Shown here: positions 3,281 to 40,296 of the stretch, piece after piece
How the letters are laid out: each line of letters opens with the position of its first letter
Numbering within the stretch: position 1 is the first letter of the stretch
Position numbers and translations under genes: made by a program
Origin: a virus
Taxonomy: Duplodnaviria > Caudoviricetes
Direction: 5' to 3' (one strand)
DNA: 40,296 bases
Virus record (IMG/VR): IMGVR_UViG_3300037851_000175
Location: 1 to 40,296 of that record
Notes under the pieces: generated by a model
Databases searched by the model: none
What the model saw: the letters and a program-made list of their open reading frames with translations, nothing else
Told to the model about the DNA's origin: nothing

Positions 3281-3858
3281 GCTACGACATTCTCAACCGT
3301 TGGACTCGTGCTGTCGTATACCACAGCGAGACGGCAGCCAACCTTGCACAGGCCGTAGTTGAGGCGGCTCGCGTAAAAACGAACCTCAGCTGCGCGGACC
3401 TCAGCGGCGCGAACCTCCGCGGCGCGAACCTCCGCGGCGCGATCCTCGGCGGCGCGAACCTCGGCGGCGCGAACCTCCGCGACGCGAACCTCCGCGGCGC
3501 GGACCTCATCGGCGCGGACCTCCGCGGCGCGATCCTCGGCGGCGCGAACCTCGGCGGCGCGGACCTCCGCGGCGCGATCCTCGGCGGCGCGAACCTCCGC
3601 GGCGCGATCCTCCGCGACGCGAACCTCGGCGGCGCGGACCTCCGCGACGCGAACCTCCGCGGCGCGAACCTCGGCGGCGCGGACCTCCGCGACGCGAACC
3701 TCCGCGGCGCGGACCTCATCGGCGCGATCCTCCGCGGCGCGAACCTCGGCGGCGCGGACCTCCGCGACGCGAACCTCAGCGGCGCGAACCTCCGCGGCGC
3801 GAACCTCCGCGGCGCGGACCTCCGGCGGGTCAAGGCCGCGATGGAGGTGATGGCATGA
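3277..3858 (+). CDS. Pentapeptide repeat protein
   Basis: About 29 tandem A(N/D/I)L(R/G/S/I)(G/D) units encoded by near-identical 15-bp repeats (3391-3825). Confidence 0.93.
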
Positions 3859-25300: not shown

Positions 25301-26309
25301 GGCCTGCTCTGGGGTCAGTACATCTCAGACCAACTGCACTTGGACGGATGCATCGACCGATGAAACCTCGTTCCAGTTTGAGCGCGGCATCGGCAGTTCG
25401 TACACCTTCCAGGCGACGCTGGCGGCGGGAACAGTCGCCTACAACTCCACCGGCCTGGCGGAAAACACCACCTACAATCACCGCGTGCGGGCGTGCAACG
25501 CCGGCGGTTGCTCGGACTGGGCCGGGCCCGTGGCGGCGGCAACGGATCCTGTCAATCCCGTCCCGAACGCTCCGTCGGCGCTGACAGTTAACCGCATCAG
25601 CGACACGATGGCGGCGATCTCCTGGACGGACAACTCCGACAACGAGGGCGGCTTCAACATCGAAGTCGTGGGTCAAAGCAACTGGACCGCCAACGGAAAC
25701 GAAACCTCGCTCCGTATCTTGGGGCTGAGTCCGGCGACGGAGTACACCTTCCGCATACAGGCCTGGAACGGGTCGGGCACCTCGGCCTGGGCGACGGCGA
25801 CGGCAACCACCGATCAGTCAGGAACGGCGCGGATCGTGCGTTCGTTCGTGGGTGGTGCCGAGATCGCGTACGCGGCCGGCGCTTTCTCGTCCTGCACCGG
25901 GTACGCGATCCATCCGCTCGGCACCGTGGAGTCCGTCACCAACGATGAGACGGGGTACAGCCGGCGCAGCCTGTTTCTGAGTGGGCTGCAACCGGGCCTG
26001 GATTACTCCTTGGTCGTGGACTGCGGCAGCACCAGCGCGAGCCTTCGCATGACGACGCCGGCGGCTGACTCCTCCACGCTCCAGATCGCAATCGGCGGCG
26101 TGGCTCCCGCTGGCGTCGATGCGCTCTCGGTGGACTACGGCGCAACCGGGAGCCTCGGGAGCACCGCGTCTACGAGCTGCACTCCGGGGGTCTCCTGCGT
26201 GGTCGGCATCTCTGCCACGAATGGGAGCATCCTATTCACGCGGCGCCGCTGGACCTACCAGGGAGCGACGGTCCAGACGAGTGCCGTAGAGAGGACGGTC
26301 GTTCAGTGA
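22317..26309 (+). CDS. Large multidomain adhesin/fibre-like protein with signal peptide, FCCH-like beta modules and two fibronectin type III domains (1330 aa)
   Basis: MRFLFLLLLVLPVAA/Q; FN3 motifs PNAPTNL...WTDASTDETSFQFER...GLAENTTYNHRVRACN and PNAPSAL...WTDNSDNEGGFNIE...GLSPATEYTFRIQAWN. Confidence 0.82.
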   Translation: MRFLFLLLLVLPVAAQVTVEDWACQAPTSATAGNPTLVTCPAPLGHGFSNFRATAIIKAWPTSGTVTIGSRTYRFVNDLTGCAAGDVRVPVSSEFSDNANTTQANRGAFLAAAIMAESEAWVQQPNNVPVRWPTTNIFCPGTTPHPDVNGYFTFSSYEPIVAVQAKVGGAAGELALSQTGGFSLQYFDRTTTLATMKRHWRVRIEGASGGWAGIGSAGRIAEVGADANTVRVLYNSSTAGSWTGQAWAMRRITWDVSGVQYYAHQNTGDYPGPTELFLNGLYGLQIDGCQPSNTELECGRAFFSPDNQKGYYDTAYMTASSFTVSGGIGTITLASNWAGTRPTPAAVDARFYLRGFQKYHLQYNISTYADNGSGTTRVTTTAAHNCTAGVDQVHISGATGANAPAGTYGITVISTTQVDLTGKAYAAGWSGGILSCNPHGRQAQDEAQWYKVTSATQFKAFKTLTAVGNTFTFASLLADGTYTGSCVPAGSCLKTGVTGPVVISSPKTAPYLYIVPRSTTAGNDWFYPIDTLWFHSKNVVPEKTNRQIYWIKWPFRTRQGTSYNANLGTFALTSSSGSRAAGRAHFYHYLSNGSEQDEWAKYYFTGAASHQQGSNGAFPNNPTTFPGHPYNAQWMGGNDPNWRYYDGSTITYLDATGGPGPGMPENFYGYTTTYFGKIQAMRVDREPDGFVRNMTLHWRTHLWNGSSYDANTGVNVGFDGLQYDFDTEYYLRYSTTGSCKTLGWSNCTTSPGFVKIADPGGGYKAVVWASPTITPRPDTIWVGIRPKVKILSASPDGQPMWFYVRDDIGIEAGDTITVSGAGGNRDGVNRVVAEATPRRIWYIDEPTSGGWSTGTGAVLNITAASATCTANLRQAHGIVPGQFITVSGTTSAALGAGDHLWLNIKKYTVASTPTATSFTFACPGVADGVFSTNLSGYRFAIWAYPGLRINTTATGAPAVSGGVLEATSETTAFTEIMLEPYDQAPAPPPNAPTNLACSGVSTSQTNCTWTDASTDETSFQFERGIGSSYTFQATLAAGTVAYNSTGLAENTTYNHRVRACNAGGCSDWAGPVAAATDPVNPVPNAPSALTVNRISDTMAAISWTDNSDNEGGFNIEVVGQSNWTANGNETSLRILGLSPATEYTFRIQAWNGSGTSAWATATATTDQSGTARIVRSFVGGAEIAYAAGAFSSCTGYAIHPLGTVESVTNDETGYSRRSLFLSGLQPGLDYSLVVDCGSTSASLRMTTPAADSSTLQIAIGGVAPAGVDALSVDYGATGSLGSTASTSCTPGVSCVVGISATNGSILFTRRRWTYQGATVQTSAVERTVVQ

Positions 26310-26989
26310 CGTTCGGCGAACTCAAGACCGAGGTTCTGCGTGAGGCCGGGGAGAACCCGGCCCTTCCGCGTTTCTGGACTGCGACCGAAGCGGGGAACGC
26401 CATCAACCGGGCTCAGTCCGTTGCGGCCTGGCTGACGCTGTGTTTCGAAGCGGACGGGACACTGGCCCATCCCGGCGGGTTTACCGCCGTCGCCCCGGGC
26501 GCCACCTTCGCCGATTGGATTCTGCCGCTTCGTGTCCGCGTCTCCGGCTTGCGTCTGATGCCGGGCAGTTTCGAACAGTTCCGCGCGGAGAACCCACTGT
26601 GGCCTTCGCTGCCAAGTGGCGTGGCTCGATACGCGATGGAAGGCTGGAACCAGATGTGGGTGTACCCTCGCCCCGCTGCCGCTATTACCTTGGAGGTCCG
26701 GCGCGCGCGGTCGCCCATCGTGATGACGCTGGACGCGAATGTGCCAGAACTGGCTGGCGAGTACCACGGCGCACTGGTCGATTATGCGGTCTTCGCTCTC
26801 CGGGCCAAGGAGGGCGCATCCGAGTTTGCGAAAGTCTTGCCGCGGCTCCGGCGGTTCCTCGAGGCGATGGCCTCGCTCGCCGGCCAGGTCCGGCGGCGCG
26901 CGATCGCGCAGAACTACGACGTGCTGCCGTCGGAATCCTTCGTTGAATCCCTGGAGAACCCACAGTGGCTATCGACTGCAGCCAAGTAA
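26306..26989 (+). CDS. Tail adaptor/ring protein (tail tubular A / P22 gp4-like role)
   Basis: MTFGELKTEVLREAGE...FWT..E...AINRAQ; WVYPRP; PELAGEYHGALVDYAVF. Confidence 0.78.
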   Translation: MTFGELKTEVLREAGENPALPRFWTATEAGNAINRAQSVAAWLTLCFEADGTLAHPGGFTAVAPGATFADWILPLRVRVSGLRLMPGSFEQFRAENPLWPSLPSGVARYAMEGWNQMWVYPRPAAAITLEVRRARSPIVMTLDANVPELAGEYHGALVDYAVFALRAKEGASEFAKVLPRLRRFLEAMASLAGQVRRRAIAQNYDVLPSESFVESLENPQWLSTAAK

Positions 26990-27588
26990 AAGCCGACCTG
27001 ACGACGCTCCTCCATGCGACCGGGGACAACGACCTGGTCTGGTGGAGCGGCGATGAACTGTACGATGCGATCGACAGCGCGGCGCAATCGCTCGCCGAAA
27101 GCACGCAACTGCTCGGAGCGTCGTACCTCCAAGGACTCCAGGACCAGGTGGGAGCGTACATCGTCGGCCTGCGGCCGCTGGCGTGCCGCGCCGTGATTGC
27201 CGACGGCCGGGCGATCGTCGAGTCCCCCGTGGAGGATCTGGAGGCGCTCAACCCGAATTGGCGCGAATGGGAGGATACGGTCCCCGAGCGGTTCGCCCTC
27301 GACGCCGAACAGCGCGGAACGTTGCGCGTTGTCCCCAAGGCGTCATCGGCTTCGACCGGCAAGGTGCTGCAGACGCTCTACCGCCAGGCGCCCCCCGAGA
27401 TCAACTCCGGGGCCACGGCTCTCGACTATCCCGGCGCACTGAGCGAGTGCTTGCTCTGGTCGGCGCTGGCCGGGGTGCTGAGCAAGGAGGGCAAGGGCGC
27501 GCGGCCGGAGATGGTGCAGGCGTGCCAGGGGATGGCGGATCTGATGACCGCGGCGGCGAAGGAATACTATGGCGTTCGCAAAACATAA
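26965..27588 (+). CDS. Second tail adaptor/ring paralogue
   Basis: WWSGDELYDAIDSA; LEALNPNWRE...PERF; LRVVP; YPGALSECLLWSAL, parallel to the upstream gene. Confidence 0.72.
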   Translation: MAIDCSQVKADLTTLLHATGDNDLVWWSGDELYDAIDSAAQSLAESTQLLGASYLQGLQDQVGAYIVGLRPLACRAVIADGRAIVESPVEDLEALNPNWREWEDTVPERFALDAEQRGTLRVVPKASSASTGKVLQTLYRQAPPEINSGATALDYPGALSECLLWSALAGVLSKEGKGARPEMVQACQGMADLMTAAAKEYYGVRKT

Positions 27589-30763: not shown

Positions 30764-33099
30764 TTACCTACGATCCCATCCCGCAGGACCTGACCGACCA
30801 GAACGAGCTGGTGCGGCTCATCAACGAGCGACTGGAGGATATGTCGCGCCGGCATCCGGTCATCTCGGGCGACGTCGATATGCGCGGCTACCGCATCCGC
30901 AACCTTGGCGAGCCCGTGGACTCGACGGATGCCAGCCCGCTGCATCGCGCAAGCCGGGTGATTCGGCGCACGGCGCCAGTGGAAGCGGGCAACACCACTG
31001 TCATTAACAACCCAGTGGCCCCGGGCGTCGAGCCGACGCAGTTGACCTCCGGGGACATCTCCCTGACGATCACCTACACCTCGGACGCAACGGGAGCCCA
31101 GTACGCGAAGATTGCGGTGACCTACACTCCCACCGGCGAGGCCGGCACGCTTGTACAAGTGTGGGGTTATCAAGCGGCGAGCCCGCCTAGCGATCCAAAG
31201 GACTTCAAGGACCCGATGACGTTTCCGATGGGCGGCGTGATCGAGTGGTATGTGGATCGGCCGAAGGCGGGGACGGTGTGGCAGTACGCGTTCACGGTGA
31301 GTTCCGGGACGTACTGGAAGATTCCCGATGCCAATACGCCGGTCAAGACGGCTACGATCACCGCGTGGGGCGTGGCTCCGCAAGTGACAGGCTTCAGTGT
31401 CACGGTGGATTACTCGGACCGCGGCGGCGTGCCGTCTGGCCGGTTCGTCTATGCATGGACGGTTCCGGCCTCGGCGGAGTACCGCTACTGCGCTGTCGAG
31501 CGGATCGCCTGTGATGCGACCTACACTCCTCTGGTGGGTGCGGTCTGGACGCGCGTGGCCGGCGATGTGGTCCCCAAGCAGAACGACTGGTGGCCGCAGC
31601 CGACGGCGCGCGAATACTGGCAGTTCCGGGCGCGGTCAGCGAATATCGCGGAGGAACTCAACAGCACGGCACCACCGACAGTGAATGTGACGGTGGACCC
31701 GTCCTCCGGCATCGCCTCGGGGGACTCGCCCGCGGATCCGATCACCCAGGCGGGATTCTCTGCCACGGTGGTCCAGTACGCAGCGAAGCCGAGCGGCGAG
31801 CAGTTGGCGTTGATCCGGGTGAGCTACTCTCCTCCGGGCAACGCTGACCTGGTTGGCATCTGGGTATACGAGGGCGGCGACCCAGGCTCCAACTACAACG
31901 CCTACCAAAACGTCACCTACTACAACAACGGCGCCACAGCCGAGTTCTGGTGGCCGCGGCCGGTGGTGGGCGCGACGCTCTATATCCGCATGACCAGCGA
32001 CAAGAAAACGTATTTCGCCAAGGTCGATGCGAACACCCCAGTAACGTCGGTAACGTTGAGCGCGTGGGGCGTGGCTCCGCAGGTCACGTTCATCAACGTC
32101 ACGGTGAGCTACCAGACGGCGGCGGGGCTGCCGCAGGGTCGCTTCACCTACTCGTGGGGCAAGCCGGTTCATCCTGAGTTCCGGCAGGCGTACATCGAAC
32201 GGATCGCGTGCGACGCGGCATTCAACCCGCTGGGCGGTGCCGACTGGCAACGCGTCGCCGGAGAGCAGAACTCAGGCACGACGAGCGACTGGTGGCCGCG
32301 TCCGGCGAACAACGAGTACTGGAAGTTCCGCGCGCGGAGCGTCAACGATGCTGGCGTCACCAACGACACGGCTCCACCGACACAGAACGTCACCGTTTTG
32401 GGCGGGGCGAAGTTGAATCTGGGCTCAGACTGGGTAGACCCGAACTCGCTCGGCGCTGGGCTCGGTTGGGATCCGGTGACCGAGAAACTGATTATCCCGG
32501 CGGGAGCCGTGGTCGATCAGATGATCGGATCGCTGGCAGCAAACAAGATCCTGGCGGGCACGATCACGGCGGCGGTGAGTATGACGTCTCCCTCGCTGTC
32601 GATCACGGGCGGGTTGTTCACGATGGCGATGAACAGTTCCGTCGGGTTGACCGTGAACGCCAACGGAGAGCAACTGGGGATCAACTCCAACTTCATGTAC
32701 GTCCAGGGCTCCGGCGGCGTGTACGCGCGCTATGGTTCCCAACTGTTCTACGTCCAGAACTCTAGCTACTTGACCAGGGGATACGTCGATGTGTTCGGCG
32801 CGTACCTGGAGGTGGATTCCCCGTACAGCAGCGGCATTGTGGTCCGCTCCACGTCCACGGGAGATTCCATTTTCGGTAACGGGACGGGGGCGTATTTATC
32901 CTTCACCGGCTCGGGCTCCTACCTCAACGCGGGCGAGCTCCGGCTCGGCGGGTCCGTCGTCATCGACTCCAGCCGCAACGTCCGGTGGTTTGGCGTCTAC
33001 AACGAAACCATTGCCCTCGGGGGCATCACCATCAATCAGTGGATCGCGGCGTACAACTCGTCGGGTTCCTACATTGGGAAGATTCCGATCATTCCGTAA
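30760..33099 (+). CDS. Tail fibre/central spike with duplicated Ig/FN3-like modules
   Basis: N-terminal coiled anchor, two copies of DANTPV..AWGVAPQVT...ERIACDA...DWWP...EYW.FRARS.N...TAPPT.NVTV, then IGSLAANKILAGTITA and a Gly/Ser beta-rich tip. Confidence 0.78.
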   Translation: MITYDPIPQDLTDQNELVRLINERLEDMSRRHPVISGDVDMRGYRIRNLGEPVDSTDASPLHRASRVIRRTAPVEAGNTTVINNPVAPGVEPTQLTSGDISLTITYTSDATGAQYAKIAVTYTPTGEAGTLVQVWGYQAASPPSDPKDFKDPMTFPMGGVIEWYVDRPKAGTVWQYAFTVSSGTYWKIPDANTPVKTATITAWGVAPQVTGFSVTVDYSDRGGVPSGRFVYAWTVPASAEYRYCAVERIACDATYTPLVGAVWTRVAGDVVPKQNDWWPQPTAREYWQFRARSANIAEELNSTAPPTVNVTVDPSSGIASGDSPADPITQAGFSATVVQYAAKPSGEQLALIRVSYSPPGNADLVGIWVYEGGDPGSNYNAYQNVTYYNNGATAEFWWPRPVVGATLYIRMTSDKKTYFAKVDANTPVTSVTLSAWGVAPQVTFINVTVSYQTAAGLPQGRFTYSWGKPVHPEFRQAYIERIACDAAFNPLGGADWQRVAGEQNSGTTSDWWPRPANNEYWKFRARSVNDAGVTNDTAPPTQNVTVLGGAKLNLGSDWVDPNSLGAGLGWDPVTEKLIIPAGAVVDQMIGSLAANKILAGTITAAVSMTSPSLSITGGLFTMAMNSSVGLTVNANGEQLGINSNFMYVQGSGGVYARYGSQLFYVQNSSYLTRGYVDVFGAYLEVDSPYSSGIVVRSTSTGDSIFGNGTGAYLSFTGSGSYLNAGELRLGGSVVIDSSRNVRWFGVYNETIALGGITINQWIAAYNSSGSYIGKIPIIP

Positions 33100-33110
33100 G
33101 AGAGGAAAGA

Positions 33111-33377
33111 ATGAAACTCACCATCGACATTCCCGACCATGTGGCGCAGGCCGTCGAGGCGTCGCTGCCGCATGACAAGGTGCCCACGCAGATCGACGCC
33201 GACACCGTGCAGATCGGTCCCCGGCACAAGACCCTCGACTCGTGGGCCGTGGCCAAACTGATCGAGGCGGCTCAACCGGCGCTCGCGGAGTTCGATCCCC
33301 TCGCCAAGCAGTTGCGTCAAGAGATTGAGGAGAAGAAACTCCTACTGGCGGAGCGCGCGAAAGGGGTGACCCGGTGA
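33111..33377 (+). CDS. Small protein after the tail fibre (possible chaperone)
   Basis: GAGGA RBS, MKLTIDIPD..., C-terminal coiled coil. Confidence 0.65.
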   Translation: MKLTIDIPDHVAQAVEASLPHDKVPTQIDADTVQIGPRHKTLDSWAVAKLIEAAQPALAEFDPLAKQLRQEIEEKKLLLAERAKGVTR

Positions 33378-33589
33378 GTCCGGTCGCCCTCCTTCCTCAC
33401 GAGATTGCGTTGATCCGGCGTCTGGACCGCCAGGCGCAGCAAGCCATCTCCGCGGCGTCTGGTGCCGTCGAAATGGCGCTCGCGGCCCGCGGCCTGACCG
33501 GGCAACCGTACCGGCTGAGCGAAGACGGCACGATGCTGTTGCCCGTCCAGCAGGGCATGGCGACCCCTCCGGCGCAGCCTCCGCAGTAA
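33374..33589 (+). CDS. Hypothetical small protein
   Basis: GTGA overlap, helical composition. Confidence 0.55.
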   Translation: MSPVALLPHEIALIRRLDRQAQQAISAASGAVEMALAARGLTGQPYRLSEDGTMLLPVQQGMATPPAQPPQ

Positions 33590-33620
33590 ACGCGGCGCGG
33601 AGCCGGGGCGACAAGAGTAT

Positions 33621-34151
33621 GTGAGCGAAGCCACTGCCGCCGCCGTCGCCTCTCCCGTGCGTGTCGAGAGCGAGTTCCCCGATTGGGCGCTGCCCCGGCT
33701 GTGGATGTGGATCGAAGCGGCGAGGGACCGGCTGTGCGATGACTTCAGCCCGCGCGAGTATGACGACTTCGCGCGCGACTGGGACGAGCGGCGGTTGATT
33801 GAGAAGCGATGGGCGGTGTACCGCGATGACGAGATCGGCGGACTGGTGACGATCACGGAGCAGGTGCCGGGCATCGGAACGTCTCACGTCGTGTTCAAGC
33901 GGTCGTTCTGGGGGCATGATACGACGCTGGAGGCGATGCGCCAGGTGTACGAGCAGGCGTTTTCGGATGGCCTGCACCGTGTCTGGTCGATGGTCTACAC
34001 GGATAACGCCTCCATGATCGCGCTGGCCAAGCGGCTCGGGTTCGAGCGCGAGGGCCGGGTGCGGCGCGCGGCGCTGCGGAATGGGGAGTGGGTGGATATG
34101 TTCGTCCTGGGATTGCTGAAGGAGGATTACGAGAAATGCCTTTCGCGGTAA
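33621..34151 (+). CDS. GNAT (RimJ/RimL-like) acetyltransferase-fold protein
   Basis: KRSFWGH...VYTDNASMIALAKRLGFEREGRVRRAALRNGEWVDMFVLGLLKEDY; sits just before the ejection genes. Confidence 0.87.
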   Translation: MSEATAAAVASPVRVESEFPDWALPRLWMWIEAARDRLCDDFSPREYDDFARDWDERRLIEKRWAVYRDDEIGGLVTITEQVPGIGTSHVVFKRSFWGHDTTLEAMRQVYEQAFSDGLHRVWSMVYTDNASMIALAKRLGFEREGRVRRAALRNGEWVDMFVLGLLKEDYEKCLSR

Positions 34152-34771
34152 TGCTGCCGATCATGGCGGGACTGGGTGCGGCCAGTGGTGCGCTCGGAAA
34201 CCGCAAGTCCGCGAGGACTTCGACCTCCAAGGAAACGGTGGACAAGACCACCACGGAGAAATCAAGCGGGAAGAAGCGCAAGTACATGACGCCGGAGCAG
34301 GCGGCGGCGATGTCGCAGGTTTCGGGTCTTTCGAGCGAGATGATGACCGACCCGGCCAAGTACCTGGAGCCGCAACGGCAGTACGCGCGCACGCAGGCCA
34401 ACGCGAATTTCTCCGGCGTCGATGACATCATCCGGCAGAAGTTCGGCACCGGCGGCGGAGCGAGGGACGGCAGGGCGGGAGCGGCCGGCCGCGCGGCGGA
34501 ACTGGCCCGGCTCGGGGCGCTCACCGGGGTGGATGCCGACTTCGCCAAGCTGATCTCCGAGGAACGGTTCAAGGGCGCGAATCTCGGCATGGGACTGCTC
34601 GGTCTCGACATGGGCAGCGACATCGAAGGCGAGAGCACGCAGCGCACGCAGGGCACTTCCGAAGGCGAGCAGGTGCGCGCGGGTGACCCGTGGAGCGGAG
34701 CGATGGGCGGCGGCTTGAGCGGCATCATGGGCGCGCTGGCAGGGAAAGAGATGGGCGTGTTCACGACATAG
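34136..34771 (+). CDS. DNA ejection/pilot protein 1 (P22 gp7-like)
   Basis: AAGGAGG RBS; Gly/Ala hydrophobic termini, Ser/Thr-rich segment after the N-terminus. Confidence 0.72.
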   Translation: MPFAVMLPIMAGLGAASGALGNRKSARTSTSKETVDKTTTEKSSGKKRKYMTPEQAAAMSQVSGLSSEMMTDPAKYLEPQRQYARTQANANFSGVDDIIRQKFGTGGGARDGRAGAAGRAAELARLGALTGVDADFAKLISEERFKGANLGMGLLGLDMGSDIEGESTQRTQGTSEGEQVRAGDPWSGAMGGGLSGIMGALAGKEMGVFTT

Positions 34772-34795
34772 AAGAAGCCGTAGGAGGCGATCACG

Positions 34796-35926
34796 ATGGG
34801 CGGCTACAGCAACCCCTTCACTGACGAAATGTGGCGCGGCCTGGCGGCGCTCGGTGAGGCGCGGAGATTTCGTCTCGGCGAAGAGGACCGGCAGCGGCGG
34901 CGCCAGGTCGAGGACGCGGAGTTCATCTCGCGCACCGCGACGACGGCCAAGCCGGTGGACAAGTACGGCATGGTCGAGGAGCGGCTGACTCCCCAGGCTG
35001 CGGACGCCCGGCTCCAGATGATCGCGCCGGAGTTGGCCTACCAGCGCCCGATGGATACCGACCGCACGGCGGTTTATCGCACGTCGGACGGACGCACGAT
35101 CGCGCGCGAGATGATGACGCCGGATGATCTGTTCGCTCGTGAGCGGCGGAACGCGGCCCTGCTCCTCGCGGACAAGGAGGTCGCGGAGATCCGCTTGCGC
35201 AAGGCAACCGAGGACATCAAGACGAAGGCCGAGCTGGTCAAGCGCGAGAAGGAGTTGGAACTTGTCCAGAAGGGGTGGGTGTCCACGGAGATCGACGGCA
35301 AGAAGGTGCTGATCAGCCCTGAAGTATTTCAGCGGGAGGCGGCCTCTAAGCGCCAAGCGAAGCCAAAGCCCCGGTTTGGCGTGGAGACTGACCCCCAGGG
35401 CAACGTCAGCGGAACCATGGTGGAAGTGGGGGAGGACGGGAATCCAGTACTGAGGGTGACTCCCAAAGTGAAGGGCATTGGGAAACCGATGCGCCAGGCA
35501 ACCACGGCCAGTCAAGGCCTACTCCTGCAGGTCGCGGAGGCAGACAAGAACAAAGCCTGGAAGGGGGCACTGAGTGCTTACAAGATGGACTTGGCAAGCC
35601 TAAAGGACCCGGCCTTAGCGGAGGAGAAACTCGCCGCAACCCTGGAGAACATCCAGTCAACGTTTGAAAAAAAGATTCTAGAGATCACCGGAGAGCCGGT
35701 GGAGCCGTTCGACGTGCGCGGGGCGCTGGAGCAGCAGAAGTCCGGCCAGGCCGCGACCCCGGCCCAGGCGTCTCCCGCACCGAAGCAGACCGCGGCGAAG
35801 CCCGCCGCGTCGGCTGGAAAGGTCGTGTCCTATTCCGAGTTGGCCACCGTCGCCAACCGGGTGTACGGCGGCGACATGGAGAAGGCGAAGGCGGCGGCGA
35901 AAGCAGAAGGCTACGAGGTGCGCTGA
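34796..35926 (+). CDS. DNA ejection protein 2 (P22 gp20-like position)
   Basis: TAGGAGG RBS; charged helical protein ending KAAAKAEGYEVR; synteny. Confidence 0.68.
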   Translation: MGGYSNPFTDEMWRGLAALGEARRFRLGEEDRQRRRQVEDAEFISRTATTAKPVDKYGMVEERLTPQAADARLQMIAPELAYQRPMDTDRTAVYRTSDGRTIAREMMTPDDLFARERRNAALLLADKEVAEIRLRKATEDIKTKAELVKREKELELVQKGWVSTEIDGKKVLISPEVFQREAASKRQAKPKPRFGVETDPQGNVSGTMVEVGEDGNPVLRVTPKVKGIGKPMRQATTASQGLLLQVAEADKNKAWKGALSAYKMDLASLKDPALAEEKLAATLENIQSTFEKKILEITGEPVEPFDVRGALEQQKSGQAATPAQASPAPKQTAAKPAASAGKVVSYSELATVANRVYGGDMEKAKAAAKAEGYEVR

Positions 35927-38900
35927 TGGGTTCGTTCACGGCTGCGCTCGAGGAAGTGCGGGCCAGTCGGCCCGCGAGCCCCGGTACTTCCGATTCTCCT
36001 CCCTCCTTTGAGGCGGCATTGCAGGAAGTGCGCTCGAAAGCGTCCGGAGCGATCGACACCAAGGGATCGACCGTCTCTCCGATCGCACCTCCCGGCGTGC
36101 CGATTCCGCAGCCGAAGATGGAGGAGGTCTGGACCCCGCAGACACCGATGGTCAGGCTGTCAAAGCCGTCTTACACATCGCACCAATGGAGGAGCGCCGA
36201 CGATCTAAACCGAGGCCCGGTTACCCCAGATGAGCGCAACGCAGAGAATGCACTCAAGCCGACTTCGGACGGCGAGCGATTTCTCAAGGGAATGCTGGCG
36301 GGTGGAGTAGAGCAGGCCGAAGGGCTCACCAGCCTGGAAAACGTGGGCATCCTGGCAGCGATGGCGCTGGGTGGCAAGATCCCCAATGTGGGTCCGGCGC
36401 TATCGGCAGGCGCGTCGGGAGCGTTCTCCGTCCAGATGATGCGCGATGCGTTTGCGGCCGCTCCGCAGGCCATGGACGCGTGGAAGCGCGGCGACTACGA
36501 GGAGGCAGGTCGGCTGCTCTCGATGACGTTGGGCGGCTCCACGATGGCCGCATTGGGGCTCCGGCACGCAGGCAAGGGAGTCCGCCGCGCAACGGACGTG
36601 ATGACCTCTGAGCGCGCGGGCGTGATGCCCAAGGCGCAGGCCGAGGTCACGCCGAAGTTTATCGCAGGCAACCCGCAGACGCGCGAGGACAAGGTGGCCG
36701 GTGGTCGCGCCTCGCTGAGCGACGAGGATCTCTACGCACGATTCGGAAATGCGCCGTCTGCCCGTGTGCGCGCGGAGTTGGCCGACGTTATCTCTGTACG
36801 CAAGGGCATGGGCCAGTGGGGACCGGAAGGCGCCTCTCTGGAGCGGAAGGCGCGGGCGCAAGCGGCTTCGCAGGCCGAGCCTCGACTTTCGCGCGAGCAG
36901 CCAATCCAGGAAGCGGCTCCGGCAGCCCCGGAGTGGGAACTGAAGCCCCGCGAAAACCTCGCGGACGCTCAGCGTGAGGTCGAGTCGCGCACCAACGAAG
37001 CGGTTCGCCGCGATCCCGAATCGTATCTCCGGCGCTACGAAGAGGAACACGGATCCAGCCGGATCTACAACGCCGACAAGGCAGCCGAACTCTTCGACGA
37101 TTACAGAACCGACCGAACTTCAAATCGAGAAGCCGTCTCCCGCGCCAGTTCCAAGATTGCCTATGAGGCGTTTCAGCGCAGGTTAGCGACCGAGCCCGCC
37201 GAAGCGTCGCCTACCGTCGTTTTGACTGCGGGTGGGACGGGCTCTGGGAAAAGCACGGGAGTTCGCGAGATGGCGGACGCCGGAGCGATTGTCTACGACA
37301 GCACCCTGGCGGATACGGCGGGAGCGCATCGTCTCGTCGATAGCGTGCTCAACTCGGGTCGAGACGTGGTCGTAAAGTACACGTTTCGCGATCCGGTCGA
37401 AGCGTTCCGCTCGACAGTAGACCGGGCAAGTGGAGAGGGTGGCGGGCGAGTGGTCGATATCGCAACTCACGCCTCGACGCATGAGAAGGCGCCGCAAGCG
37501 GTAAAAAGTCTCTACGAGAGGTATCAAGGCGATCCACGCGTGCAGTTTACGTTTGAGGAGATCGGGGCTGAACGCGGACTCGCGAGGGGTGGCGTTGAGT
37601 TGCTCGACAAGGGAGCGTACACTGGGTCCAGGGAGGTTCTTCGTGGAAAACTCGACGAATGGTTCCAGCAAGGATCAGTCCCGGAACGAGTCTACCGGGC
37701 ACTTGCCCCGCAAGCTGACCGTGGAGGACGTGTACCGGATGTCGGCCTCGGCACACAAACTCCGTTCCGAGAACCCGGAGGAGTTCTTCCGCAGGTATCC
37801 CGATATGGACTTCCGCCTCAGCAAGCCCAGCAAGTAACCGAATCCCGCTCCCGCCTCACCGAGTTCTTCAAGGACGAGTCCGGCACCTTCCGGCCCGACG
37901 TGTTGCGCGACTTGGCGACGGTGGGCGTCGAGCACTTCAAGCGCGGAGTGGAGAAGTTCACCGACTGGTCGCGCGAGATGGTGCGCGAGTTCGGCGAGCG
38001 CGTCAAGCCGCACTTGCTCAAGGTATGGGTGGAAGCGAAGCGGCTGTGGCAGAGCGAGGCCGGGACGGGGACCTCTCCAGTAGAGAAAGCGGCCGCTGCC
38101 AACATGGCCGAAGCAACCGAGACGCAGGGCGTGAAGCAGCCCGCGAAGAAAACGGCGGTGGCGGCCGAGGAAAAAGAGCCGCTCGCCGCCTCGCCGAACT
38201 ACCTCCAATCCAAGGACCGCATCACCAAGAACCTCGACGTGTCGCCGGAAGTGAAGGCCGAGGTCCAGGCCGCGCTCGACGAGTACGCCACAACGGCCAA
38301 GCCGACGCTCAAGACCTACTCGTTCAAGGACGTCATGGACGAGGCGCGCAGCCTGGGCGGAAACGAGATGGTTCTCGCGCTCGACAAGTCGAAGTACGAC
38401 AAGTGGTCCACCGTTCCGGCCCCGGTGAAGCTCAAGATGCGCGAGATGGTGAACGGCCTGGGCGATCACATCCTCAAACTGGAGAAAGAGCAGAAGCGCG
38501 TCAAGTCGGAGGTCCGCGCCGAAGGCGATACGATGCTGGCCGAACTTGAGAAGCAGATCGACCAGGCGCGCAAGGATCAGCAGCAGTTGCTGGACGTGCT
38601 GATGCCGATGCGCTCGCAGGACGGGCGCAATCTGGCCTACTGGCGGATCCAGGCGGAGCAGTCGTTCGACACCGAGTTCTGGATGAGCCGGGCTCGCCGG
38701 GCGGCGGGTCTCAAGCCCGAGGCAACCGAATTGCCGAAAGACCTGGCGGACTCCATCAAGCGCATCACGGCCGAGGGGCAAGCGGCAGAGCAGGCGGCGC
38801 AGCAGCAAGCCAAGGCGCGAGCAAGGCGCGTGCAGAGGTTGACGGGAGAGGCGACCGAGGCCGCGCCTGTGGACATCGGCAACGATCCCAAGGTCAAGGC

Positions 38901-40296
38901 CAAGCGGCTGGAGCTGGCGAAGACGCTGGCCAAGGCGGAGCGGACCACCAAGCTACAGACCGCGCTCGCCATCTGGAAAGCCGGGCTGCTCACTGGTCTG
39001 AAGACGCACCTACGCAACATTCTCGGCAACGCCTCGTTTCAGGTGATGGAGGAAGTGCATCGCGTCCCCGCTGCGATGGTGGACATCGCGATCTCCACTA
39101 TGACCGGGCAGCGAACGGTACATGGCCTCAGCGTTCGCGACTTCGTTGGCTCAGTTGGCGAGGCCGCAACCAAAGGCGTCCGCGAAGCAAAGGAAATTCT
39201 CAAAACAGGAACCACGGCAGAGCAGACGGCCCACCTTGAGCTTACGAAGGAACTGAACTCCGGCAACGCTGAGGTTGACATGGCGGTCAATTCCGTTTTT
39301 CGCGCGCTGAAGGCGCAGGACGCTGTGTTTAAGCGGTATGCTTACGAGCGCGCACTCCGCGAACAGATGCGCCTGGCCAAGGTCACGACACCGACGGTCA
39401 CCATGCAGGCTGAGGCAATGGCCTACGCTGACTTTGCGACGTTCAACAACCCGAACCAGGTCGCGAGCGCATTTCAACGGTTCAAGTCTGGATTGTCGCC
39501 CACGAGCCGGGCGGTCACCGAGTTTGTCATCCCATTCGTGAATACGCCCACGAACGTCTTCGCTCGCATGGTGGACTACTCACCCGCTGGGTTTCTCAAG
39601 GGAGCGGTCGAGGCCGCAAAACTGCGAAAGTCCGAGGGCAAGTTCACCGCCAAGCAGCAGGCCGTGATCAGCCATGCAATTGGGCGCGGCCTGGTCGGAT
39701 CGGCGCTGATCCTGGCGGGCTACTACGCCCGGGAGAAGGGATGGGCCACCGGCGTAAAAGCTGGCAAGGAATCCATGAGCGGCGTCGAAGAAGCAGCGGG
39801 CCAGCAGCCCGGCAGCATCAAGATCAACGGCAAGTGGCAACAGGTTTCCGCACTCGCTCCGGGCGGCAACCTCTTTGTGCTTGGCGCGTCCATGGCGGAA
39901 GAGGCGGAAGTCCGCAAGACAAAGCCCTCGCCCGGCGAGACTGCGGGACGCATGGCGGGCCTGGCGACCCGCACCGTCCTGGACCAGCCGATGGTATCGG
40001 GCGTCAGTTCCACGCTCGACGCGCTGAAGGATCCGAACCGCAGTCTCGGGACCTTGGCCCGGCAATCCGCGTCCTCGCTCATCCCCGCCGTCGTCGGCAC
40101 TGCTGCGCAGATCGCAGACCCGACGCGCCGCGAGACGCGCGAGTCCATCGTGGACTCCATGCAATCGAAGATCCCCGGCGCCGCCTCGAAACTGCCGGAG
40201 CGCACGGACGTGCTCGGGCGGCCGCTCGACGCCTCGCGCGCCAACGCGGTCAACCCGTTCCAGCCGGCCGAGGACCGTTCCGACGCGGCCACGCGC
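35926..40296 (+). CDS. Giant ejection/polyvalent protein (at least 1457 aa, 3' truncated) containing a zeta-toxin-like P-loop kinase domain
   Basis: TGATG overlap; frame 1 appears open to the window end (translated by hand in large part); VVLTAGGTGSGKST at about 37216-37257; C-terminal IPFVNTPTNVF...DYSPAG...QPGSIKINGKW...SKIPG..KLPERTDVLGRP typical of large ejection proteins. Confidence 0.85.
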   Translation, partial: MGSFTAALEEVRASRPASPGTSDSPPSFEAALQEVRSKASGAIDTKGSTVSPIAPPGVPIPQPKMEEVWTPQTPMVRLSKPSYTSHQWRSADDLNRGPVTPDERNAENALKPTSDGERFLKGMLAGGVEQAEGLTSLENVGILAAMALGGKIPNVGPALSAGASGAFSVQMMRDAFAAAPQAMDAWKRGDYEEAGRLLSMTLGGSTMAALGLRHAGKGVRRATDVMTSERAGVMPKAQAEVTPKFIAGNPQTREDKVAGGRASLSDEDLYARFGNAPSARVRAELADVISVRKGMGQWGPEGASLERKARAQAASQAEPRLSREQPIQEAAPAAPEWELKPRENLADAQREVESRTNEAVRRDPESYLRRYEEEHGSSRIYNADKAAELFDDYRTDRTSNREAVSRASSKIAYEAFQRRLATEPAEASPTVVLTAGGTGSGKSTGVREMADAGAIVYDSTLADTAGAHRLVDSVLNSGRDVVVKYTFRDPVEAFRSTVDRASGEGGGRVVDIATHASTHEKAPQAVKSLYERYQGDPRVQFTFEEIGAERGLARGGVELLDKGAYTGSREVLRGKLDEWFQQGSVPERVYRALAPQADRGGRVPDVGLGTQTPFREPGGVLPQVSRYGLPPQQAQQVTESRSRLTEFFKDESGTFRPDVLRDLATVGVEHFKRGVEKFTDWSREMVREFGERVKPHLLKVWVEAKRLWQSEAGTGTSPVEKAAAANMAEATETQGVKQPAKKTAVAAEEKEPLAASPNYLQSKDRITKNLDVSPEVKAEVQAALDEYATTAKPTLKTYSFKDVMDEARSLGGNEMVLALDKSKYDKWSTVPAPVKLKMREMVNGLGDHILKLEKEQKRVKSEVRAEGDTMLAELEKQIDQARKDQQQLLDVLMPMRSQDGRNLAYWRIQAEQSFDTEFWMSRARRAAGLKPEATELPKDLADSIKRITAEGQAAEQAAQQQAKARARRVQRLTGEATEAAPVDIGNDPKVKAKRLELAKTLAKAERTTKLQTALAIWKAGLLTGLKTHLRNILGNASFQVMEEVHRVPAAMVDIAISTMTGQRTVHGLSVRDFVGSVGEAATKGVREAKEILKTGTTAEQTAHLELTKELNSGNAEVDMAVNSVFRALKAQDAVFKRYAYERALREQMRLAKVTTPTVTMQAEAMAYADFATFNNPNQVASAFQRFKSGLSPTSRAVTEFVIPFVNTPTNVFARMVDYSPAGFLKGAVEAAKLRKSEGKFTAKQQAVISHAIGRGLVGSALILAGYYAREKGWATGVKAGKESMSGVEEAAGQQPGSIKINGKWQQVSALAPGGNLFVLGASMAEEAEVRKTKPSPGETAGRMAGLATRTVLDQPMVSGVSSTLDALKDPNRSLGTLARQSASSLIPAVVGTAAQIADPTRRETRESIVDSMQSKIPGAASKLPERTDVLGRPLDASRANAVNPFQPAEDRSDAATR
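37643..37837 (+). CDS. Nested +1-frame 64-aa gene, candidate antitoxin/immunity protein
   Basis: AGGGAGGT (37630-37637) 5 nt before GTG; GC3-rich codons in this frame while the host frame is A/T3-rich; ...LPRKLTVEDVYRMSASAHKLRSENPEEFFRRYPDMDFRLSKPSK. Confidence 0.6.
   Translation: MENSTNGSSKDQSRNESTGHLPRKLTVEDVYRMSASAHKLRSENPEEFFRRYPDMDFRLSKPSK

Follow-up and report, generated by a model that had tools for sequence, protein, structure and literature searches.

The best described relative of the locus reported here is the ng_epsilon1/ng_zeta1 pair of the N. gonorrhoeae plasmid pConj (PDB 6EPG/6EPH/6EPI). According to Rocker 2018 (PMC5923241), ng_zeta1 phosphorylates UDP-sugars at C4', contacts UDP-MurNAc through Lys59 and Asn75 and is lytic in E. 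coli, and its 61-residue partner ng_epsilon1, an extended helical chain, neutralises it, covers its ATP site and forms a stable heterodimer with it. Many zeta toxins have no known antitoxin, and the genes searched for one were those upstream (Chan 2023, PMC10532202). In EzeT of E. coli a streptococcal-type kinase carries its inhibitor at the N-terminus of the same chain (PMC10532202). Zeta-like kinases also occur in polyvalent and MuF proteins (Iyer 2017, PMC5512222), and MuF toxins are phage structural proteins in which a protein-terminal toxin domain is followed by a small immunity ORF (Jamet 2017, PMC5576092). An antitoxin translated from an internal start within the toxin gene is described for Rpn, where RpnS is an in-frame C-terminal tail of the toxin and the system serves host defence (Zhong 2023, PMC10327210). 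Finally, alternate-frame insertions have been engineered by design (Leonard 2024).

The window, by which I mean the whole stretch of 40,296 bases analysed (a virus record of 81% completeness), contains a giant ORF with an internal zeta-type kinase domain, and a likely antitoxin gene lies in the +1 frame across the end of that domain (Table 1). The locus shares with ng_epsilon1/ng_zeta1 the rewired kinase fold, the catalytic residues and a helical partner of ~60 residues. However, ng_epsilon1 is a separate upstream gene of a bicistronic pair, whereas the window partner lies downstream and out of frame, enclosed over its whole length by the toxin-bearing ORF, and the window kinase, unlike ng_zeta1, sits as a domain within a phage protein and differs at the positions of Lys59 and Asn75. 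A large multidomain protein among phage late genes is also what Iyer 2017 describes for zeta-kinase polyvalent proteins, but that account (PMC5512222) lists these kinases without an antitoxin or overlapping gene, and the word 'overlap' occurs 0 times in its main text. The internal start recalls Rpn; unlike RpnS, however, the inner ORF lies in +1 rather than in the toxin frame, is unrelated in sequence to the toxin and belongs to a phage or plasmid effector. MuF toxins present the same succession of structural protein, toxin domain and small immunity ORF, but the window protein runs on for 800+ residues through the putative immunity gene, and Pfam finds no MuF domain in the giant ORF, which sets it apart from the MuF polymorphic toxins. 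A literature search, its scope ending short of subscription journals and bioRxiv supplements, returned no account of antitoxins that are nested out of frame behind a zeta domain.

Table 1. Features of the window and of related plasmid loci (L numbers denote fetched loci).
Feature	Position	Strand	Basis or remark
Giant ORF hosting the module, predicted ejection/polyvalent virion protein	35926..40296	+	1457+ aa, runs off the window
GNAT gene and two genes (227, 376 aa), presumably the usual place of small/medium ejection proteins	33621..35926	+	Gene order
ng_zeta1-type P-loop kinase domain, main frame	36940..37722	+	Pfam, profile, model
Shine-Dalgarno site AGGGAGGT, inside the kinase coding sequence	37630..37637	+	5 nt before GTG 37643
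Nested ORF, 64 aa, likely antitoxin	37643..37837	+	+1 frame relative to the ORF from 35926 to the window end; TAA 37835-37837
Dual-coded stretch: last two kinase helices (main frame) and low-complexity peptide N-terminus (+1)	37643..37704	+	Model helices 230-243, 249-255; mixed codon signal
Conserved helical peptide core; main frame is a Gly/Pro/Gln-rich linker	37700..37816	+	Alignment A7, P0004 helices, GC3 switch
Nested +1 ORFs of plasmid ng_zeta1-like kinases	L161:3219-3482, L162:2599-2802, L165:2267-2494, L166:2171-2371		ng_epsilon1 homologues
Nested +1 ORFs of plasmid ng_zeta1-like kinases	L167:2168-2368, L168:2180-2383, L169:2180-2383		ng_epsilon1 homologues

Host protein and kinase domain

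Family searches identify terminase, SU10-type portal, capsid, adaptor and internal-virion genes in the window, and the giant ORF is the last of three genes downstream of these. A large multidomain protein of this length (1457+ aa) among virion genes is the layout of polyvalent and ejection proteins. On the part of the ORF inside the window Pfam returns Zeta_toxin only, as an internal match, and no further named polyvalent domain; polyvalent domains are present in 21 of the 45 homologues scanned, where LPD22, LPD38, ART-PolyVal, ddrB-ParB and MPTase occur. The C-terminal part resembles viral clusters (likeness 0.96) and an LPD38 cluster (0.94), which I treat as a lead only. From gene order, this lead and the polyvalent domains of the homologues, I predict that the giant protein is an ejection protein. 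The 227-aa and 376-aa genes beside the GNAT gene occupy the place that small and medium ejection proteins usually have in podophages, and neither has a family match supporting such a role. No sigma-70 promoter was found within 33000-40296. Elsewhere in the window the tandem genes 26306-26989 and 26965-27588 both match phrog_399 (adaptor-like), an apparent duplication.

The Pfam Zeta_toxin match covers residues 455-534 of the giant ORF (E 4e-10), and a profile of 58 kinase-family sequences has ng_zeta1 as its sole match in the PDB (6EPH, E 2e-27). The model of the domain (pLDDT 95) reaches a TM-score of 0.84 to 6eph_B and shows the rewired topology of ng_zeta1, in which the P-loop follows the catalytic Asp block, whereas its TM-scores to streptococcal zeta (1GVN/3Q8X) or AvrRxo1 are only 0.43-0.44. 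With TM-scores of 0.38-0.44 and no upstream gene for a three-helix-bundle antitoxin, the locus is neither a streptococcal epsilon/zeta nor a PezAT system. The equivalents of Asp56, Lys115, Arg175 and Arg181, mapped by hand, are D25, K83, R141 and R149 of window:37003-37710, and all four are invariant in the family alignment (A2). The window kinase is 16-18% identical to ng_zeta1 and sits on a long branch in the tree, and the equivalents of the UNAM-contacting Lys59 and Asn75, read by hand, are Ala and Arg, unlike those of ng_zeta1. The kinase keeps its catalytic residues and is a likely cell-wall toxin; with two contact residues changed, its phosphorylation of UDP-sugars and its lytic toxicity are putative. 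Its family is large, with 1,888 representatives at E 0.001, and large proteins predominate among the best 150. The GC3 of the kinase is 0.67 against 0.80-0.83 in the reference and the downstream main frame, which fits a later arrival of the kinase module.

The nested reading frame and its conservation

The initial annotation had reported a strong ribosome-binding site 5 nt before GTG 37643 and a +1-frame ORF from there to the TAA ending at 37837; both are as described, the site having a GGAGGT core and the ORF 64 codons. It had placed the ORF right behind the kinase, and this needs amending: the ORF does cross the kinase end, but it starts about 20 codons inside the kinase, and both frames are coding through the two final helices of that domain (model residues 230-255, about 37627-37704). 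Other starts in the nested frame are TTG 37553, TTG 37595, GTG 37730 and ATG 37739; GTG 37643 has the best Shine-Dalgarno sequence (SD) among them and matches the commonest start position in homologues (-68/-71 from the kinase anchor). It is one of 13 combinations of GGAGGT/AGGAGG and a start codon on the + strand of the window, and of the 30 SD-led ORFs that occupy an alternative frame within 20 window genes, the nested one alone has a clear gain in GC3 (+0.42; the next, +0.12). From 37700 to 37837 the nested frame has a GC3 of 0.87 (40/46) and a CAI of 0.71, whereas the main frame has a GC3 of 0.40 (18/45) and a CAI of 0.39. The genome reference GC3 is 0.80 and the main frame is back to 0.83 past the nested stop, which bears out the codon switch from about 37700, and the recovery after the stop, that had been claimed. 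The window peptide has no match in Pfam, PHROG or Atlas, and the RNA fold around the SD is no better than that of shuffles (z -1.4). A short helical segment at 37900-38050, after the nested stop, resembles by eye the post-linker segments in P0077 and L098.

Conservation was assessed in 147 sequences (146 fetched loci and the window), of which 139 have a kinase match and 125 were usable; 14 loci were dropped as cut, weak or frameshifted, and the rest form 67 lineages at 70% kinase identity. I scored +1 ORFs that start no more than 125 nt before the kinase end and reach 60+ nt past it. Such an ORF is present in all 46 lineages with an embedded kinase (45/45 without the window) and in 20 of the 21 with a stand-alone kinase, whereas the +2 frame has one in 0/67. 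An SD of 4+ bases precedes the nested start in 34/46 embedded and 19/21 stand-alone lineages. As controls, 50,648 anchors were placed in the same giant ORFs, and +1 is open at 23.7% of them and open with an SD at 5.5%; neither the lineages nor the control anchors are mutually independent, and the conservation figures are plain counts. GC3 is higher in the +1 than in the main frame in 46/46 embedded lineages as compared with 28% of controls. The one stand-alone lineage without such an ORF, L065, does have a comparable one immediately after its kinase stop, and L032 passes with a peptide that is without the family motif. In L073, which was left uncounted, the kinase frame shifts near its end (near locus position 3540-3600, likely a sequencing error) and the peptide is intact.

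Substitutions follow the same division. In four embedded pairs the ratio of synonymous to non-synonymous codon differences within the kinase is 175:73 in the main frame and 16:233 in +1, and behind the kinase it becomes 4:61 and 28:35; eight stand-alone pairs give 7:116 and 44:73 behind the kinase. Because synonymous change shifts to +1, the +1 frame is the constrained gene behind the kinase and the main frame a permissive linker, and the linker-like main frame of the initial annotation is better described as a permissive, secondary frame. The tests suggested there, namely retention of the RBS and ORF among homologous kinase modules and frame-specific GC3 and substitution patterns in homologues, thus both favour a selected gene. 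The lineage-wide layout and the selection switch therefore rule out, at the level of the family, a chance ORF or an assembly error, including the sequencing frameshift that might have produced the codon pattern. For this particular contig, none of the contigs from 4 sequencing runs spans the overlap. It is almost certain that the nested +1 frame is a real hidden gene. A back-translation from protein sequence alone, in which the linkers of P0015 and P0021 fit the window-type motif in +1 (38 matches among 181,879 positions), is weak because the motif was picked after those linkers had been viewed.

Peptide families and the link to ng_epsilon1

Plasmid relatives of ng_zeta1 were collected by kinase similarity, and 8 of the 96 records were examined. 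An SD-led +1 ORF is nested behind the kinase in all seven non-gonococcal loci, and it is unannotated in all six of the records that have annotation. One of these ORFs sits in a Moraxella ArdcN-MPTase-Toprim-zeta-KfrB polyvalent protein and has ng_epsilon1 as its best PDB match (E 0.74). A profile of the seven ORFs, built without epsilon1, likewise has ng_epsilon1 as its best PDB match (E 0.0023 among 177,635 sequences), scoring 22.2 bits where the best of 300 shuffles reached 7.8. This similarity is significant, and the nested ORFs of the plasmid relatives are homologues of ng_epsilon1. In N. gonorrhoeae itself (pEP5289) epsilon1 lies upstream of the kinase and there is no nested ORF, a single case of mutual exclusion.

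The window peptide has no match in the PDB. Its alignment to ng_epsilon1 gives z 0.7, with 445 of 2000 shuffles equally good, BLASTP returns no alignment of the two, and profile-profile comparison does not rise above shuffles. A profile of the majority type of nested peptide (A4) does not recover epsilon1 in the PDB either. Short peptides diverge fast. Because the window peptide lacks an ng_epsilon1 match and its kinase is distant, its identification as an antitoxin rests on position, co-travel, fusion and analogy.

Most nested peptides share a C-terminal helix with a Leu-Asn motif (the 'LN-helix', or majority type). The window type differs and has no significant similarity to it, and profile-profile comparison among the three peptide types gave links no stronger than column shuffles. 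Relatives of the window peptide do exist as genes of their own: P0001 is a called gene 80% identical to it, and P0165 and P0166 are two further small called genes of this type. P0004, P0014 and P0022 are in-frame fusions of the kinase with a window-type peptide (39% identity over 38 aa, E 4e-8), and P0024 is a more distant fusion of the same kind. In these four, available as protein sequences only, the shifted-frame product replaces the last kinase helices, and they represent either a C-terminal counterpart of EzeT or frameshifted copies. Like EzeT (PMC10532202), P0004, P0014 and P0022 would hold kinase and inhibitor in one chain, although in EzeT the inhibitor is N-terminal and in the fusions it is C-terminal. 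The P0004 model places helices at its residues 267-287 and 289-295, in the peptide part (pLDDT 72-93), and its pTM falls to 0.76; its alignment contained one misaligned peptide row, and the model is uninformative on docking.

A quick tree built from 52 kinases places all six window-type rows inside one 10-row group (SH-aLRT 89), and peptide type tracks kinase lineage. No window-type peptide locus was found among viral contigs or by single-sequence scans, and the window kinase as query had no match in plasmids or GenBank phages. Among 13 Bryobacteraceae loci, six contain no window-type peptide (0 of 6), five were without a match (+ strand only) and two are cut or broken.

Function of the peptide and wider occurrence

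Taken together, the conservation of the overlap, the selection switch, the epsilon1-homologous relatives and the fusions suggest that the nested ORF probably encodes the cognate antitoxin of the kinase. The initial annotation had proposed as much, and its proposal stands in that a selected ORF is tied to the kinase and has relatives matching ng_epsilon1, but not in any significant match of the window peptide itself. Its appeal to zeta antitoxins in general holds for the small helical partner; the system that fits, however, is ng_epsilon1/ng_zeta1, not the streptococcal three-helix epsilon.

I propose that ribosomes start at the internal SD on the late mRNA of the giant protein; given internal initiation on a common mRNA, peptide and giant protein would therefore be synthesised side by side. 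Like ng_epsilon1, the peptide would cover the active site of its kinase, using the helical core (about residues 20-58). Left unchecked, the kinase would phosphorylate a UDP-sugar or a nucleotide related to it and so damage the cell that makes it ahead of lysis. The claim that a pre-existing cassette was captured has gained support: the same overlap is found in stand-alone kinases (20/21 lineages) and plasmid proteins (7/7 non-gonococcal), and because stand-alone and embedded kinases share it, the cassette was apparently ready-made. In the ancestral stand-alone form an antitoxin gene would have overlapped the 3' end of the toxin gene, and the pair would later have been inserted into a large protein, where the stretch of toxin frame that crosses the antitoxin gene serves as a linker under loose constraint. 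Such read-through would thereby allow a toxic domain to sit mid-protein with its immunity gene kept.

The fate of the peptide on injection is a separate matter. That it stays behind, and that the kinase, once injected, works unopposed in the next host, I offer tentatively. The same reserve applies to a general design in phage and plasmid polyvalent proteins, in which toxic cargo would be paired with an out-of-frame antitoxin gene that doubles as a linker and whose peptide is left behind. If true, this design would let toxins be inserted mid-protein with the producer shielded by co-translation from one mRNA, would disarm the toxin in the donor alone, since injection leaves the peptide behind, would provide a large family of orphan zeta toxins (the 1,888 representatives) with the antitoxins they lack and may extend to other cargo domains.

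Of the other readings the one that survives best, though it is unlikely, is that a real peptide binds the kinase but travels along with it, as a packaged and injected complex or as a regulator of folding or activity. The kinase would then be no unchecked toxin in the recipient and may use another substrate, for example in counter-defence. The stability of the ng_epsilon1/zeta1 heterodimer, the altered substrate-contact residues of the window kinase and the natural fusions, which hold peptide and kinase covalently together, all agree with a travelling peptide, but the catalytic Asp, the P-loop Lys and both Arg are kept and the nested relatives are homologous to a proven antitoxin. I consider it quite improbable that the peptide comes from a genuine small gene whose function has nothing to do with the kinase and which hitch-hikes at the kinase end: its position is fixed in 66/67 lineages, it is found fused in frame to the kinase, the plasmid clade has epsilon1 homology and peptide type follows kinase lineage, and against these stand the lack of significant ng_epsilon1 similarity in the window peptide and the different peptide families of different kinase lineages. 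Programmed frameshifting into +1, which would yield a short self-inhibited kinase-peptide fusion like P0004, is slightly less probable again; fused proteins with the last kinase helices swapped for the +1 product do exist, but an SD and start codon at a fixed place (34/46, 19/21) and the stand-alone called genes P0001, P0165 and P0166 tell against it. A chance ORF, or paired compensating assembly frameshifts in the contig, is highly improbable, since for all that +1 is open at 24% of control positions in GC-rich genes, the layout is common to 46/46 embedded lineages, the main frame keeps homologous kinase helices through the overlap, selection switches frame and P0001 is an independent homologue.

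An antitoxin gene nested in the toxin-bearing ORF thus remains the preferred reading. It would be a new, gene-in-gene variant of the type II toxin-antitoxin pair and may explain many 'orphan' zeta toxins, for which the nested ORFs are directly testable antitoxin candidates. Nested partners are unannotated in all plasmid and phage records inspected, because gene callers omit small genes inside larger genes on the same strand. The layout answers how a cell could survive making a structural protein with a toxic domain in its interior, and it is a natural case of the alternate-frame insertion built by synthetic biologists. Linkers of polyvalent proteins may accordingly need to be re-read as genes.

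The search for similar nested ORFs behind other cargo, also suggested initially, gave a mixed outcome: some non-kinase modules have them, but the occurrence is patchy and clear in 3/10 distinct loci (one module). Because nested +1 ORFs also follow some non-kinase modules, nesting alone is no proof of an antitoxin. SD- or ATG-led +1 ORFs with a GC3 gain were seen in the giant proteins of L096 (near 3503), L129 (near 3455), L011 and L016, and further ones in L128 (near 6134), L113 and L020, in L122 (near 6392) and in L068. The modules that precede them I take, by eye from their motifs, to be ParB-like and methyltransferase-like; a ddrB-ParB domain match is present among the homologues scanned.

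Several neighbouring arrangements were also observed. In a Bryobacteraceae MAG (L094:286-2727) the kinase frame continues through the nested ORF into MurD ligase domains, which is either a cell-wall-precursor kinase joined to a cell-wall enzyme or chance read-through. Genes resembling terminase small subunits, by eye, lie directly after stand-alone kinase-peptide pairs in L024, L074, L083 and related loci. Finally, a phage protein annotated as 'thymidylate kinase' (L163:2069-4705, MW202577.1) ends in a zeta-type domain, and an unannotated 40-aa ORF of the Leu-Asn type (L163:4686-4808) overlaps the end of that domain.
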